A DNA stretch of 64,000 nt from Candidatus Latescibacterota bacterium (GCA_965205485.1 OZ242180.1:640001-704000), one strand, 5' to 3'. Counted from the first letter of the stretch, positions 12,240 through 18,717 are shown. Numbers and translations: made by a program. The notes: generated from the letters alone by a model not told the origin.

Positions 12240-12812
12240 TCACAAACCCTCGCCCATATCGAATTCGAAGTTATTCTCTGCGTCGGCAAGCGCTGGGAGT
12301 TCCAGGTCCTTTCCTGACAGGATCGGATCGGATACCGGCCAGTCGATGCCGACGGCCGGATCGTTCCACAGGATGCCCCGGTCCAGGTCGGGCGCAAACT
12401 CCGCCGTGACCTTGTAGACAAACTCCGCCTCGTCGCTCAGCACGCAGAACCCGTGCGCAAAACCCTCCGGAACGTAGAACATCCTGAAATTCCCTTCCGA
12501 CAGCACAACCCCCTCCCACTTTCCGAAGGTGGGCGCATTCCTGCGGATATCCACGGCAACGTCGAACACCTCGCCCCTGACAACCCGCACCAGCTTGGCC
12601 TGCGCCGCGGGATGCAGTTGATAGTGCATTCCCCTCAGAACGCCCCTTTCCGAATGGGAATGGATATCCTGTACGAACTCGGCGGCAATTCCGTTGGCCT
12701 CGAAATCCGACTTCTTGTAGGACTCCATCAGAAAACCGCGACTGTCCTCGAAGACCCGGGGTTCAACCAGAATAAGGCCGGAAATTCCCAGTCTTTCGAA
12801 CCTGAACGGCAT
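12240..12812 (-). CDS. rfbC: dTDP-4-dehydrorhamnose 3,5-epimerase
   Basis: FEDSRGFLMESY, GVLRGMHYQ, DVAVDIR, GFAHGF. Confidence 0.95.
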   Translation of the reverse strand: MPFRFERLGISGLILVEPRVFEDSRGFLMESYKKSDFEANGIAAEFVQDIHSHSERGVLRGMHYQLHPAAQAKLVRVVRGEVFDVAVDIRRNAPTFGKWEGVVLSEGNFRMFYVPEGFAHGFCVLSDEAEFVYKVTAEFAPDLDRGILWNDPAVGIDWPVSDPILSGKDLELPALADAENNFEFDMGEGL

Positions 12813-12848
12813 ACAGTTTCCTTTCGAGGCAAGTCCGCACGACCCGGA

Positions 12849-13883
12849 TCATGACTTCCGGGACGTCGCCTGCTTCCATTCTTCCTCGTCCACGTCCAGA
12901 CGTTTCAGCAGAGGTTCCCACCACGCCCGGTTATCGGTGTACCAGAGCACCGTCTCTTTGAATCCGCGTTCAAATGAAATTTCCGGACGCCAATCGAGTT
13001 GCGTGCGCAGCTTGTTCGAATCGAGAAGGTATCTGCGGTCGTGTCCGGGGCGGTCCGGAACGTAGACCTTGTGGGATCGGTCCAGCCCGAGTACATCCAG
13101 AATGGTGTCCGCGATCGTCTCCACGTCCACCTCCATGCCGCTGCCGACGTTGTACGTCTCCCCGATTATACCCCGTTTCAGGATCAGGTCGATCGCCCGG
13201 CAATGGTCCTCCACATGCAGCCACTCCCGCTTGTTCCGGCTGCTCTTGTAGAGCGTCATCTTCTTTCCGTCGAGCAACTGCGTGACGAACAGCGGGACTA
13301 CCTTTTCCGGGAACTGATACGGCCCGTAGTTGTTCGCGCAATTGGAAATCGTAACCGGCAACCCGAACGTGAGATGGTACGCCCGAACCGCCAGATCGGC
13401 CGCCGCTTTCGATGCGTTGTAAGGCGTACGCGGCTGATACGGGTCCGTCTCCGAAAAGCTCGCTTCAGAGTCCAGCGGCAGGTCCCCGTAGACCTCGCAG
13501 GTGGAAATGTGGTGAAACCTGGGCACTCCTGCGTCGTGAGCCGCCCGCAGGAGACGCTGGGTCCCAAGCACGTTGGTTTCGAAGAAGACGTCGGGATTGA
13601 CCACAGCGCGGCTGTTGTGCGACTCGGCGGCGAAGTTCACGATGCAGTCCGGCTTGTGCCGCTCGAGAAGGTCCCGCGTCATCCCGTAGTCGCCGATATC
13701 GCCCTGAACGAACTCGTACCTGCCGGCACAGGCGCCGGCCACGTCGGCCAGGTTTTCCGGAATCCCCGCGTACGTGAGCAGATCGTAATTGATGACGGTG
13801 TCGTCCGGGTACCTGGACAACCAGTACCGAATGAAGTTCGATCCGATGAACCCTGCCCCGCCCGTCACGAATATCCTGCCCAT
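12849..13883 (-). CDS. rfbB: dTDP-glucose 4,6-dehydratase
   Basis: TGGAGFIGSNF, FAAESH, YNASKA, NNYGPYQFPEK, DRPGHDRRY. Confidence 0.95.
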   Translation of the reverse strand: MGRIFVTGGAGFIGSNFIRYWLSRYPDDTVINYDLLTYAGIPENLADVAGACAGRYEFVQGDIGDYGMTRDLLERHKPDCIVNFAAESHNSRAVVNPDVFFETNVLGTQRLLRAAHDAGVPRFHHISTCEVYGDLPLDSEASFSETDPYQPRTPYNASKAAADLAVRAYHLTFGLPVTISNCANNYGPYQFPEKVVPLFVTQLLDGKKMTLYKSSRNKREWLHVEDHCRAIDLILKRGIIGETYNVGSGMEVDVETIADTILDVLGLDRSHKVYVPDRPGHDRRYLLDSNKLRTQLDWRPEISFERGFKETVLWYTDNRAWWEPLLKRLDVDEEEWKQATSRKS

Positions 13884-13892
13884 ATTGGACCC

Positions 13893-14870
13893 CTATAAGA
13901 ACAATACCCCGGTTAAAGCCAGGTACGCCCCGTACATCGCAAGCAACACGACGCCCTCGAGCCGGGTCAGCCGGTGCCCTGTGCGCATCATGATGAGCAT
14001 CGCGAAGACGATCACCAGCATCGCTGGAAATGAAAAGTGGATTACCTTTTGCGTCACCACGAGCGGATTGACCACCGCGGATGCGCCGGCGATCCAGCAG
14101 ATATTCAGGATATCCGCTCCCAGGATATTGCCGACCACAATCTCGCCGTGCCCTCTCCTGGCAGCCGTGACCCCGGTGGCGATCTCCGGCAACGACGTGC
14201 CGATGGCAATCACCGTAAGCGCAATCACCGCTTCGCTGACGTCCAACGCCTTGGCGATGACCACGGCGGATTCCACGATAAAATGACTCGAAATCAGCAC
14301 CCCCACCAGCCCCACGCAGAACCAGAGCATCAATGTCCCGAGACCTCGACCCTCAATGGACGCTTCGATCTCCCTGAGATCCTCCATTCGGTTCCCTTCG
14401 GCCTTGGATGAACGACTGCGCGTGACATAGGTAAAGACCGTGTATGCCACGAAGAGCAGGAGCAGTACGCCGCCCTCGATCCGGTCCAGAGTACCGTCGA
14501 ACGCCATCGCGTAAGCCGCCAGGTCCACGACGATCAGGAAGATCCCTGTCGTCCACAGCAGAAATGGATTGATGAGGATGGGCGACCCGGCCACGAGGAC
14601 GCCCAGCGCGAGCGCGACGCCGTCGTCCACGATCACCGACCCAATGGCGTTTCCAAGCGCCATTTCAGGATGGCCCTCGAGTGCGGCAAGCACGGAAACG
14701 GCCAGTTCGGGCGAGGTCGTCGCCAGGCTCACCAGCACGATGCCGATCAGCATTTTCGGCACATTCAGGTACTCGGCAATCCCTACGGCTCCGTCCACAA
14801 ACCAGGACGCGCACTTGGAAAGCACCACGAAACACACCGCCAGAACGCCGACTGCAACCGTTATACTCAT
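13893..14870 (-). CDS. Calcium/sodium antiporter (YrbG/CaCA family)
   Basis: Alpha repeats ATTSPEL...GNAIGS and GTSLPEI...GNILGA. Confidence 0.9.
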   Translation of the reverse strand: MSITVAVGVLAVCFVVLSKCASWFVDGAVGIAEYLNVPKMLIGIVLVSLATTSPELAVSVLAALEGHPEMALGNAIGSVIVDDGVALALGVLVAGSPILINPFLLWTTGIFLIVVDLAAYAMAFDGTLDRIEGGVLLLLFVAYTVFTYVTRSRSSKAEGNRMEDLREIEASIEGRGLGTLMLWFCVGLVGVLISSHFIVESAVVIAKALDVSEAVIALTVIAIGTSLPEIATGVTAARRGHGEIVVGNILGADILNICWIAGASAVVNPLVVTQKVIHFSFPAMLVIVFAMLIMMRTGHRLTRLEGVVLLAMYGAYLALTGVLFL

Positions 14871-14955
14871 ATAAAACAATCCTTTATTAGTCCAAACAGA
14901 CACTCACCATCTGGCCCGTGCAGGGGGCTCCGACGACGGTGGCGAAACGCGCCGC

Positions 14956-17277
14956 TCATCTGCCGGCCACCCGCGCCACCCAGATGCTGAATTCGTAGAG
15001 CAGCACCAGCGGCAGCGCCATCATCAGCTGGGAGATCGGATCCGGCGGCGTGAGCAACGCCGCCAGTACAAAGCCGATCACCACTGCATACCTCCTGCCG
15101 CGGCGCATCAGTTGCGCGGTCAGCAGGCCGATCCGGCTCAGGAAGAACGCCGCCACCGGCAGCTCGAACACGACGCCGAAGGCAACCAGCAGTCTCAACA
15201 CGAAACCGATGTAGAAGCCGATGTCGAACTGCGGGTCGACTCCGGTCCCTTCGCCGATCAGAATCAGGAATCGAAAGGACAGCGGCACCACGCTCACGTA
15301 AGCGATAGCGCCACCCAGGACAAAACAGATCGACGATGAAAAGACGATGAAAGATACGTACCGCCGCTCGGTTGTCAACAGACCCGGCGCAACGAAGATC
15401 CACAGTTGATACAGGAGAACCGGCAGCGCCAGGACCGCGCCGCCAACAAGGGCGATCTGAAGTTTAACGAGAAACATCCCCATTGGTTTCAGATAAATCA
15501 GCTTGACAGGCGGCTCAACGGGCGCCACCCCCAACAGCTTCATGACCGGGGTCGCCTCCCGGACCGGCAACACGAGCCACCCAAGTATATTGTCAGAAAA
15601 TATCCCGCAGATCACCGCGCCCACAGCGAGCGCGGCCAACCCCTTCAGCAGACGCCAGCGGAGTTCCTCCAGATGGTCCAGAAAGGGCATCGGTCTGTCG
15701 TCTGCGCCCGAAGCCGGTTCCGGCGCGGGTTCCGCGGACATGTCCGAATCGGGGGGCAGAATGGAATGCTCTGCAACCACCGCGCGACGCCGGAAGGCCA
15801 TCAACACCAGGACCGCGCCCAGGACCAGGCAGAGCTGCGAGAAAAGGTCTCCGTTTCTCGTATAAAATGTCTTTGCGGTTCGCGGCGTCACCCCCTGAGT
15901 CAAAACTGCCGGATGGAAGATCCCCGTTGTCCCCGACTTCCGTCCCCATGCGTCGATAAACGTGGAAACGCCGGTGTTCGCGCAGCGCACAACCGCCCGC
16001 CGGTTCTCAATGGCGCGAAATACCGCGGCCTCGGCGTGCTGAAAGGGTCCGGAGGTCCGACCGAACCAGCCGTCGTTGGTGATGATCACCAGGAATTCAG
16101 CGCCCAGATCCACGAATGACCTGACGAATCCCGGAAAGACCGAATCGTAACAGATCAACGCGGAAAATCGCGCGCCGGGGCCGTTGAAGACCGTGCGGGT
16201 CTCTCCGGAATCCCAGTTCCCACCCACGAATCCGCCGCCGGTGAACCGGATTTTTCGCAAAAAGGGAAGTATTTCCGGGAACGGCGCCCGTTCGCCGAAG
16301 GGCACCAGGCGAGTCTTGTCGTAGTATCCGGAGATCCCCTTTCCGGGCACGAACAGAAAAGAGGAGTTGAACACCTTCACCGGTTCGCCGGCTTCCAGTC
16401 TGTAGGCACCCGTATAAAGGTAGATGCCGAGCGAGTCCACCATGGCCTGCACCCGCTCGCGATGGCGCCGGTACAGCTCCCCTTCAAGGTAACCGACCGC
16501 CGTCTCGGGCCACACGACCAGCCGTGCCCCCTGACTCGCGGCTTCCGCGGTCATCGGCTTCAGTTTGCCGAAATTATAGTCGAATCCCCGGTATTCCTTG
16601 GCCACCGGGGGCATATCCGGCTGGACCAGGCCCACCGCCACGGCCTGTTCGTCCGGATCGTTCTTCAACGCCAGATACCCGTTCGCCGCCGGTCCCGCAA
16701 AGAGTACGGCCAATGCGGCTGCCCACACCCGGCGCCGCGCCCGGTTCCTCCAGAGCATCATGATGCTCAGATTGACAAGCACAATCCAGAACGACACCCC
16801 GTACACGCCCGTAACTTCCGCGTACTGGATCAGCCTCAGATAGGCCGTCTGCGAGTTTCCCAGCACCACCCAGGGAAACCCCATGTCGCCCAGAGAGTTG
16901 AAATACTCGAACCCGACCCAGAGGAAGGGCGCGCTCCACATCCCCGCAATGCCGTACCGCCTGACCACGCGGGCGAACGTCCACAGGAACAGTCCGCGGA
17001 ACAGGGACATGTAAATCGCCGCCCCGGCCATGCCTGGCGGCGTGATCGATCCGATCCAATAGAGTGTCGTCCCGTAGAAGAAAATCCCCTGGACGAACCC
17101 GGCGCCGAAGGCCTCCCGGCCGCGCACCCGTTCCGCGGAGAACAACAGCGGAATCAGCGCGACGTAAGACAGGAAGCCCAGAGGCAGCGGTGGAAACGCC
17201 GCGCCGAGGACAAGGCCCGAGACCGCAGGAAACAACACCATCCATTTCCAGTCCGTTCCCTGTCGTGCCTCGGTCAT
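14956..17277 (-). CDS. lnt-tatC: Fusion of apolipoprotein N-acyltransferase (Lnt) and Tat translocase subunit TatC
   Basis: Lnt triad motifs VVWPETA, YDKTRLVPFGE, LICYDS, plus TNDGWFG. From residue 530, TatC motifs MPFLDHLEELRWRL, YQLWIFVAPGL, FELP, TPPDPISQ. One 773-aa frame. Confidence 0.92.
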   Translation of the reverse strand: MTEARQGTDWKWMVLFPAVSGLVLGAAFPPLPLGFLSYVALIPLLFSAERVRGREAFGAGFVQGIFFYGTTLYWIGSITPPGMAGAAIYMSLFRGLFLWTFARVVRRYGIAGMWSAPFLWVGFEYFNSLGDMGFPWVVLGNSQTAYLRLIQYAEVTGVYGVSFWIVLVNLSIMMLWRNRARRRVWAAALAVLFAGPAANGYLALKNDPDEQAVAVGLVQPDMPPVAKEYRGFDYNFGKLKPMTAEAASQGARLVVWPETAVGYLEGELYRRHRERVQAMVDSLGIYLYTGAYRLEAGEPVKVFNSSFLFVPGKGISGYYDKTRLVPFGERAPFPEILPFLRKIRFTGGGFVGGNWDSGETRTVFNGPGARFSALICYDSVFPGFVRSFVDLGAEFLVIITNDGWFGRTSGPFQHAEAAVFRAIENRRAVVRCANTGVSTFIDAWGRKSGTTGIFHPAVLTQGVTPRTAKTFYTRNGDLFSQLCLVLGAVLVLMAFRRRAVVAEHSILPPDSDMSAEPAPEPASGADDRPMPFLDHLEELRWRLLKGLAALAVGAVICGIFSDNILGWLVLPVREATPVMKLLGVAPVEPPVKLIYLKPMGMFLVKLQIALVGGAVLALPVLLYQLWIFVAPGLLTTERRYVSFIVFSSSICFVLGGAIAYVSVVPLSFRFLILIGEGTGVDPQFDIGFYIGFVLRLLVAFGVVFELPVAAFFLSRIGLLTAQLMRRGRRYAVVIGFVLAALLTPPDPISQLMMALPLVLLYEFSIWVARVAGR

Positions 17278-17553: not shown

Positions 17554-18717
17554 GTGCTTCCCCATCTCGACACGGAGCTGGACAGTCTCAGATCCCACGG
17601 GCTCCACCGCAGCCTCCGCCTCGTGGAGGGTGCGCAGGGTCCCCGGGTCCGCATCGACGGCAAAGAACGCCTCCTTTTCTGTTCCAACAACTACCTCGGG
17701 CTTGCAAACCACCCGGCGCTCAAGGACGGCGCGGACGCTGCGCTGCATTCGTACGGATTGAGCGCTGCTGCCTCCCGGCTCATATCCGGAAACATGGAAC
17801 CCCACCGGATACTGGAACACCGGATGGCGCATTTCCTGGGTACGGAATCCGCACTCTGCTTTCCCACCGGATACATGGCGAACCTTGGCGTCGTTAGCGC
17901 CCTCGTCGGCGCTGAAGACGCAATTTTCAGCGACCGACTGAACCATCGCAGCATCATCGACGCTTGCCGGCTCTCCCGGGCGAAGACGTTCGTCTATCGC
18001 CACCGGGACGTGGACCATCTGGAATGCCTTCTCGGTTCCCAGCGTGAGTACCGGCGCCGGCTGATCGTCAGCGACGGGTTGTTCAGCATGGATGGAGACC
18101 TGGCGCCTCTCCCGGGGCTCGTGGAGGCAGCCCACCGGCACTGTGCCATCCTGATGGTTGACGACGCCCACGGGACCGGGGTCCTGGGCGCTTCCGGCCG
18201 GGGCATACACGAACACTTCGGCATCACGCAAGGCATCGACGTTCTGACGACCTCCGGCAGCAAGGCCCTCGGCGCGTACGGCGGATTCGTCGCCGGAAAC
18301 GAGAAACTCGTCGACCTGCTGATCAATCGGGCCGCGGCATTTATCTTCACCTCGGCCCTGCCGCCCGACGCCTGCGCGGCAGCGACGACTGCATTGGCGT
18401 TGATCGAAACCTGTCCGGACCTTCGGGAAGACCTCTGGCGTAACGTCCATACCGTACAAGACGCCCTGGATGACCTCGGCTTCGATATCATGGACTCCCG
18501 ATCCCAGATTGTTCCGGTCCTTATCGGCGACGCGGCACGTACGATGGCGATTTCCGACCACCTCTTCGAGGAGGGCGTCTACCTCAGCGGCATCCGGCCG
18601 CCAACCGTACCCGATGGTGAGAGCCGCCTCCGGCTTACGCTGATGGCCGACCACAGCGATGATGATATCAACCGTCTCATCCATGCGATGGCAGATGTTC
18701 GTGAGGCCTTTTTTTAA
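17554..18717 (+). CDS. bioF: 8-amino-7-oxononanoate synthase (alpha-oxoamine synthase family)
   Basis: FCSNNYLGLA, TGYMANLG, LNHRSIIDA, SMDGD, DDAHG, SKALG, IRPPTVP. Confidence 0.85.
   Translation: MLPHLDTELDSLRSHGLHRSLRLVEGAQGPRVRIDGKERLLFCSNNYLGLANHPALKDGADAALHSYGLSAAASRLISGNMEPHRILEHRMAHFLGTESALCFPTGYMANLGVVSALVGAEDAIFSDRLNHRSIIDACRLSRAKTFVYRHRDVDHLECLLGSQREYRRRLIVSDGLFSMDGDLAPLPGLVEAAHRHCAILMVDDAHGTGVLGASGRGIHEHFGITQGIDVLTTSGSKALGAYGGFVAGNEKLVDLLINRAAAFIFTSALPPDACAAATTALALIETCPDLREDLWRNVHTVQDALDDLGFDIMDSRSQIVPVLIGDAARTMAISDHLFEEGVYLSGIRPPTVPDGESRLRLTLMADHSDDDINRLIHAMADVREAFF

Follow-up and report, generated by a model that had tools for sequence, protein, structure and literature searches.

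A natural fusion of Lnt and TatC in a class of Candidatus Latescibacterota

The fused gene and its two halves

We analysed a 64,000-nucleotide stretch (the window) of a Candidatus Latescibacterota bacterium genome (GCA_965205485.1, OZ242180.1:640001-704000), in which one open frame of 773 codons on the minus strand (14956..17277; protein P0001) fuses lnt, encoding an apolipoprotein N-acyltransferase, to tatC of the Tat pathway (twin-arginine translocation). As the original prediction had proposed from the sequence, the frame holds a complete Lnt, a proline-rich acidic linker and a complete TatC from residue 530. Pfam detects LNT_N (20-170), CN_hydrolase (216-448) and TatC (534-756) in the protein; with 318 bits against a cut-off of 132.9 for TIGR00546 (lnt) and 198.8 bits against 132.7 for TIGR00945 (tatC), it scores above both thresholds. 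The host genome (G000) is a single contig of 5.13 Mb, 97% complete, and tblastn of each half against all of it returned the fusion locus as the sole lnt and the sole tatC; besides this locus, there was one weak match of 48 residues (E 9e-4). Neither gene thus has a stand-alone copy in the genome.

When re-read, all three minus-strand frames are free of stop codons between FRRR (residue 495) and MPFLDH (530), as had been claimed, and the nearest stop in another frame sits just before FRRR. GC content at third codon positions is 0.68-0.91 along the gene and 0.69 in the linker. Contigs from four runs were compared with the window. Two of them, X1-4 (15640-16102) and X2-10 (15196-16164), span the junction with no stop and no differences; X1 and X2 are possibly source data of the assembly. 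A contig from a different study (X5-17), from a sponge metagenome holding related DNA, covers the entire stretch with 127 substitutions and no gaps, and the X6 contigs cover 18 of 30 bins, with the junction outside their coverage. The Lnt-TatC fusion is genuine and no assembly error.

The Lnt half (residues 1-497; 15787..17277, minus strand; Pfam and NCBIfam) comprises the membrane domain, the periplasmic nitrilase-fold domain and the last membrane helix. Residues 21-499 align to E. coli Lnt (5VRG), and in a fold search the AlphaFold2 model matched Lnt 8AQ4 with a TM-score of 0.83 by target. Alignment with 5VRG places the catalytic triad at E258 (E. coli E267; 16504..16506), K321 (K335; 16315..16317) and C376 (C387; 16150..16152), all on the minus strand and all invariant in 102/102 fused homologues, as is E329 (E. 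coli E343). The half shares with E. coli Lnt (TIGR00546; 5VRG, 5N6H, 8AQ4) the membrane and nitrilase-fold domains, the Glu-Lys-Cys triad and the E343 equivalent; unlike it, it carries a whole TatC after the last helix and does not keep W237, which is E228 here and Gly, Glu, Ser or Arg in homologues. In the fused homologues the Y388 position is Tyr or Phe and the E389 position Asp or Glu. These three residues are among those required in E. coli Lnt (PMC3850990), and according to the same source an active mycobacterial Lnt keeps just five of the seven needed residues. The changes at W237, Y388 and E389 are also present in unfused members of the class. By score, fold and key residues the half belongs to the TIGR00546 family, and N-acylation is its predicted activity.

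The TatC half (residues 530-773; 14959..15690, minus strand; Pfam, TIGR00945, alignment and model) begins with the motif MPFLDHLEELR. The model has the six-helix fold (TM-score 0.90 by target against Aquifex TatC 4B4A), and over the whole fusion it shows two well-folded units (mean predicted local distance difference test score, pLDDT, 83.7; predicted TM-score 0.68). The signal-binding residues are H535, E538, F628 and E637; E705 and D746 correspond to E170 and D211. H535, F628, E637, E705 and D746 are invariant in 102/102 fused homologues and E538 is kept in 100/102. Compared with known TatC structures (Aquifex 4B4A and 4HTS; E. coli and Nitratifractor core complexes 9DZZ, 9E02 and 9E07), the fold and the equivalents of H12, E15, F94, L99 and E103 are shared; unlike in those proteins, the N-terminus is tethered to Lnt, and the Y100 position is mostly Leu in the class, in fused and unfused forms alike. 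Four of the five signal-peptide-binding residues described for TatC (H12, E15, F94, Y100 and E103; PMC13323110) are therefore kept. By score, fold and key residues the half belongs to the TIGR00945 family, and transport is its predicted function. In family f4 of the class (for example L058-L100), TatC has an insert of about 30-60 residues in the first periplasmic loop that splits the profile match.

The only TatA-family gene of G000 lies about 3.1 Mb from the fusion, in line with the earlier remark that no tatA or tatB is adjacent. We did not find a separate TatB in G000, where TIGR01410 matches the tatA gene only, below its cut-off. The system thus differs from a TatABC-type translocase in having one distant TatA-family gene and no TatB found. 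A single PF02416 match is present in 101/105 class genomes, fused or unfused. A role of the fusion as a substitute for TatB was rejected, since unfused genomes likewise have one TatA-family gene.

The fused gene is the first of its unit. Downstream and co-oriented are a Ca/Na antiporter gene (13893..14903, minus strand) and then rmlB- and rmlC-like genes (12240-13883, minus strand), identified with Pfam and NCBIfam and given as context only. Upstream lies a divergent gene for a bioF-like pyridoxal phosphate (PLP) enzyme (17554..18717, plus strand; Pfam Aminotran_1_2); the gene at the corresponding position in two relatives (G020 and G038) scores as bioF.

Distribution and origin of the fusion

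The order to which G000 belongs comprises families f1 and f2, and the class also holds f3 and f4. All 53 genomes of the order have just one tatC each, and in every one of them a match at 55-100% identity runs through the junction with no stop codon; two of these matches are cut by contig ends and one is broken near the 5' end. The fusion recurs in independent genomes, and relatives with two separate genes were found only outside the order. All the genomes are metagenome assemblies, but the open junction throughout the order and the bridging contigs without differences or gaps make an error of sequencing or assembly, or a read-through mutation confined to one strain, exceedingly improbable, and the distribution refutes it. 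Apparent frameshifts near the 5' end of lnt (G029; L098 = G150) and inside tatC (L053 = G102) were also seen and are probably assembly errors.

Outside the order the picture is mixed. In f3, lnt and tatC are adjacent but separate in two of three genomes; in the third (G069), tatC follows mnmA, in a bioF/rmlC/rmlB setting like that of lnt-tatC in the window (L219:7644-9627). In f4, where 66 of 69 genomes were examined, 30 are fused (23 in genus g25, two in g29 and five in g30). Among the 36 unfused f4 genomes the two genes lie within 220 bases of each other in 29 and 1.4-31 kb apart in four, and in the remaining three adjacency is absent or not assessable. Over the class as a whole, lnt and tatC are adjacent but separate in 31 of the 39 unfused genomes examined. 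No locus with both genes was found in other classes among 20 loci from 18 of 28 genomes, several of them on short contigs, and neither fusion nor adjacency was seen in 31 of 32 further loci, these 31 being from other phyla; the exception (L177) matches the query over both halves, like class members. Both halves were matched in only two of the best 150 representatives at 50% identity, both already counted, and weaker fused forms might rank below these 150. Database names for the fusion proteins are only Lnt or hypothetical, and the TatC of this lineage is therefore easily missed.

For a tree we joined the Lnt and TatC domains end to end (89 rows) and took two genomes from other classes as the root, leaving out 15 near-redundant rows, one frameshifted row and loci without one half. 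The tree rests on Lnt and TatC themselves, not on marker genes, and agrees with the genus codes. It gives four state changes with an unfused root, and a 62-row IQ-TREE reconstruction (LG+G4, quick mode) also gives four. Approximately unbiased (AU) tests rejected a single fused clade (p 0.0005) and a single f4 fused clade (p 1e-44), while g29 and g30 as one clade are compatible with the data (p 0.41). One early fusion would instead require about 12 later splits, counted on the 62-row tree. Because the AU tests reject both single clades, the phylogeny indicates that the fusion arose at least three times independently from an unfused gene pair.

Genus g25 likely shows the path from separate genes in one frame to a fused gene. 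In its four unfused members lnt and tatC share a frame, interrupted by a single stop that is followed one codon further on by an ATG; of the 23 fused members, none has retained an ATG within the 45 codons preceding the motif Met.

Across the class the lnt-tatC pair is constant while its neighbours change. In the window it is flanked by bioF and the Ca/Na antiporter gene; G020 and G038 have bioF and Memo/MBL genes beside it, and f4 genomes have radC together with various others.

The linker and the number of products

The two halves are joined by a linker rich in Pro, Glu, Ala and Asp (residues 498-529; 15691..15786, minus strand), delimited from the model, conservation and lengths. Residues 500-527 have pLDDT below 50, and column conservation in the 102-row alignment is 0.31-0.33 in the linker, compared with 0.62-0.81 in core domain blocks. 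Linker length varies from 20 to 100 residues (median 39) among the 102 fused homologues and is identical in 15/15 genomes of the window's genus; in g25 (L058-L083) the fused linkers carry a variable number of six-residue repeats rich in Asp, His, Glu and Pro. The N-terminal tails of unfused TatCs are similarly acidic and Pro-rich, and judged by composition the linker resembles an old Lnt tail followed by the N-terminal tail of a stand-alone TatC. A short S/T-I-L-P motif (SILP/TILP) persists in the variable f1 linkers (15745-15770 in the window, minus strand) and could be a small docking site or reflect shared ancestry.

The last Lnt membrane helix (residues 477-495; 15793..15849, minus strand) was placed by hydropathy, corresponds to helix 478-495 of the model and is followed by RRR. 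The linker should be cytoplasmic, because a periplasmic nitrilase domain is followed by this one helix ending in RRR; in described Lnt proteins the nitrilase domain is likewise periplasmic with one helix after it (PMC8689077). We therefore infer, as the original prediction had stated, that the Lnt C-terminus and the TatC N-terminus are both cytoplasmic and that the topology is compatible with fusion. No signal-peptide-like segment was found at the joint, the linker being polar with no hydrophobic stretch from 496 to 542, and a polyprotein cut by signal peptidase was rejected on this ground.

M530 (15688..15690, minus strand) is part of the conserved TatC motif and, by alignment and Shine-Dalgarno (SD) scoring, no evident internal start. 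Pairing of the preceding sequence with the genome's own 16S tail is +0.3 kcal/mol, compared with medians of -5.8 at called starts (n = 645) and -2.65 at internal ATGs (n = 604), in keeping with the earlier observation that no clear SD precedes MPFLDH. It is nonetheless conceivable, if improbable, that two proteins come from the frame, either because translation also starts internally at or near M530 or because the exposed, disordered linker is cleaved. M530 is nearly invariant (Met in 52/53 fused rows), but it is equally conserved in unfused TatCs (34/34), which mostly also possess an ATG upstream of it, and in one fused form the position is Ile (ATA). The likely starts of many unfused tatC genes also lack an SD, so initiation without an SD is conceivable; still, the median before the motif Met across 38 order loci (-2.6 kcal/mol) equals the internal-ATG background, and Met occurs in only 23 of 102 linkers. 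Eight g6 genes have a linker ATG at -5.3 kcal/mol, and three of four fused g30 genes (L095, L097 and L099) have an SD-like match of -7 to -11 kcal/mol before the motif ATG, a pattern that could mean an internal start in that lineage or stem from Gly-Glu codons. Across the lineages we saw neither a signal-peptide-like segment nor a conserved cleavage motif.

Tolerated fusion or coupling of export and maturation

We consider it moderately likely that the gene arose by read-through fusion of a conserved gene pair, tolerated by the cell and hard to reverse, with both halves working normally and Lnt tethered to a TatA-only Tat core. An ancestral close lnt-tatC pair would have fused on at least three occasions, when the lnt stop was lost or a short change restored the frame. 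Fusion would come easily, as both the Lnt C-terminus and the disordered TatC N-tail lie in the cytoplasm, and would be hard to undo once the tatC start codon has gone; the join itself would be nearly neutral. The product would be one inner-membrane protein of 14 helices with two independently working halves connected by a flexible cytoplasmic tether: acting from the periplasmic side, Lnt would N-acylate every diacylated lipoprotein, most of them exported by Sec, and TatC would act as receptor of a minimal TatA-TatC translocase. TatC is described as binding signal peptides at the cytoplasmic face via residues of helix 1, and the Tat core as a TatC trimer with convex faces toward the bilayer (PMC13323110). 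An uncut chain would thus place three Lnt domains on cytoplasmic leashes around each trimeric core, and no dedicated hand-over of substrates would be required.

Both families are also found fused to unrelated neighbours. Two proteins (P0120, with the source label candidate division KSB1, and P0121) carry quinolinate synthase, NadA, at the TatC C-terminus, and PAP2-Lnt, Lnt-LEA_2 and Lnt-SNase fusions occur among P0163, P0180, P0187, P0158 and P0162; two of these Lnt proteins extend at the C-terminus by about 330-350 residues that match no Pfam family.

Export and maturation of lipoproteins were examined for signs of a functional link. Lipoproteins exported by Sec or Tat are processed by Lgt, then LspA, then Lnt (PMC8689077). 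In G000 lgt and lspA are single genes about 1.5 and 2.7 Mb from the fusion, and lolA is single and also distant; no lgt/lspA/lnt/tat cluster was found among 80 neighbouring genes from eight of 14 wider loci. Rough counts, made on our own gene calls (3932 genes) with pattern rules that fired 5, 4 and 0 times on 2861 internal control segments, gave 82 lipoproteins, 18 Tat-like signals and three proteins with both from the called starts, and 110, 31 and six when alternative starts were allowed; several of the Tat-like calls are plainly membrane anchors. TIGR01409 detects seven Tat signals in the genome, six above cut-off. Because three to six of the approximately 82-110 predicted lipoproteins are twin-arginine proteins, the sole Lnt would serve mainly Sec lipoproteins, and lipoproteins would form a fair share of a small Tat repertoire. 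The clearest Tat lipoproteins lie at G000:C1:1926021-1927082 and 1539854-1540975; one is a molybdopterin oxidoreductase whose tether is long and acidic, the other a DctP binding protein of the tripartite ATP-independent periplasmic (TRAP) type.

Sister lineages were compared as well. In g25, unfused genomes have 7, 8 and 8 Tat signals and fused ones 4-12; in g30 the counts are 7 and 6 in unfused and 6, 5, 4 and 5 in fused genomes, so that no difference between fused and unfused sisters appears in these two genera. No alignment column was common to the four fused groups and rare elsewhere, in a weak test (0 columns; null mean 0.13 over 816 control sets).

Several observations weigh against a merely tolerated join. 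No split form occurs in the 53 order genomes, and three to four fusions fell on one junction. Two control junctions, each with constraints of its own, behave otherwise: psd and pssA are unfused in the four long-frame loci that have both genes (104 genomes screened by frame length, six loci checked), and tatA frames do not exceed 294 residues in 105 genomes. The retention of the pair amid changing flanks suggests, from gene order, selection on co-expression. The top two Tat-signal matches of the genome, the molybdopterin oxidoreductase and the DctP protein, are both lipoproteins, and the S/T-I-L-P motif is retained in f1 linkers.

Some of these points would fit a selected coupling, in which the join brings Lnt to the Tat site, where folded lipoproteins leaving TatAC would be matured on the spot with Lgt and LspA arriving by diffusion, or else sets a 1:1 ratio of Lnt to TatC or steadies a core that lacks TatB; the conserved gene pair would be an earlier form of the link. 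This we hold to be rather unlikely. In its favour are the kept adjacency, the at least three independent fusions with no reversal within the order, the two lipoproteins at the head of the Tat list and the f4 tatA operon, also with pssA and psd, which often lies 6-14 kb upstream of the pair. Against it, Lnt performs the third step (PMC8689077), lgt and lspA are unlinked in G000 and absent among the scanned neighbours in relatives, most Lnt substrates would be Sec lipoproteins, Tat-signal counts do not differ between fused and unfused sisters, the fused groups show no convergent residues, and a single TatA-family gene is common to fused and unfused genomes. Adjacency is moreover broken in four f4 genomes, and no lnt was found upstream of tatC in G069, G084 and G085. 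The original prediction had inferred that Tat-exported lipoproteins could be channelled to maturation; with Lnt acting third (PMC8689077), lgt and lspA unlinked, so few lipoproteins in the twin-arginine class once counted, a linker that ranges from 20 to 100 residues, and neither group-specific residues nor additional Tat signals in the fused lineages, channelling to N-acylation is not supported.

In the boldest reading, the Tat translocase of this class would be one machine with the final step of lipoprotein maturation, and three Lnt domains per trimeric TatA-TatC core would finish or check folded lipoproteins at the export site. This is unlikely. If it were true, the gene pair and its three to four fusions would act as a Rosetta-stone signal that Tat and lipoprotein maturation are physically linked, and such a link may exist unfused in other bacteria.

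The nearest precedent, also named in the original prediction, is mycobacterial Lnt-Ppm1, in which a second protein is likewise joined at the Lnt C-terminus; the two are fused in some species and encoded by adjacent genes in M. smegmatis and C. glutamicum, and the partner is still active after deletion of the Lnt domain (PMC3850990). There the partner is a glycosyltransferase domain, whereas here it is a polytopic translocase subunit forming a trimeric complex. TatB-TatC fusions have been obtained in E. coli, and the discussion of that work holds that a TatB portion ahead of TatC integrates into the complex (PMC5102672). Together with TatC-NadA they resemble the present case in that TatC is joined to other proteins, at either end; unlike in either, the N-terminal partner here is an eight-helix enzyme of another pathway. 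We found no description of a natural Lnt-TatC fusion in a search of titles and abstract openings, with most subscription journals outside its coverage. The fusion, of two well-studied families, is thus itself apparently undescribed, as had been supposed.

An uncut product would mean that an eight-helix enzyme on every TatC N-terminus, beside the signal-peptide site, is compatible with a working Tat core, and apparently with one that has no TatB. The tethered enzyme would constrain models of TatA recruitment, and the fusion offers a large built-in handle for cryo-electron microscopy of a TatAC complex. The class also provides a natural gene-fusion series, from separate to adjacent, to in frame with one stop, to fused, with at least three origins. 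If coupling is real, fused and split constructs would test the link between export and maturation of Tat lipoproteins directly.

The genes pssA and psd make phosphatidylethanolamine, the preferred donor of Lnt. They occur in a conserved run, degP-psd-pssA-DUF4321-tatA-gatA-porV-like, which carries the only tatA (L001, L210-L216; genomes G000, G090, G152, G097, G093, G094, G138 and G119). The run lies 6-14 kb upstream of lnt-tatC in many f4 genomes; in G000 about 3.1 Mb separate the two, and the gene directly upstream of pssA there is not psd. At L210:8694-14226 the gene for a barrel of the PorV/PorQ family stands beside one for a large lamin-tail/Ig-domain protein, whose weak PorU-like C-terminal match hints at type IX-like secretion parts in the phylum.

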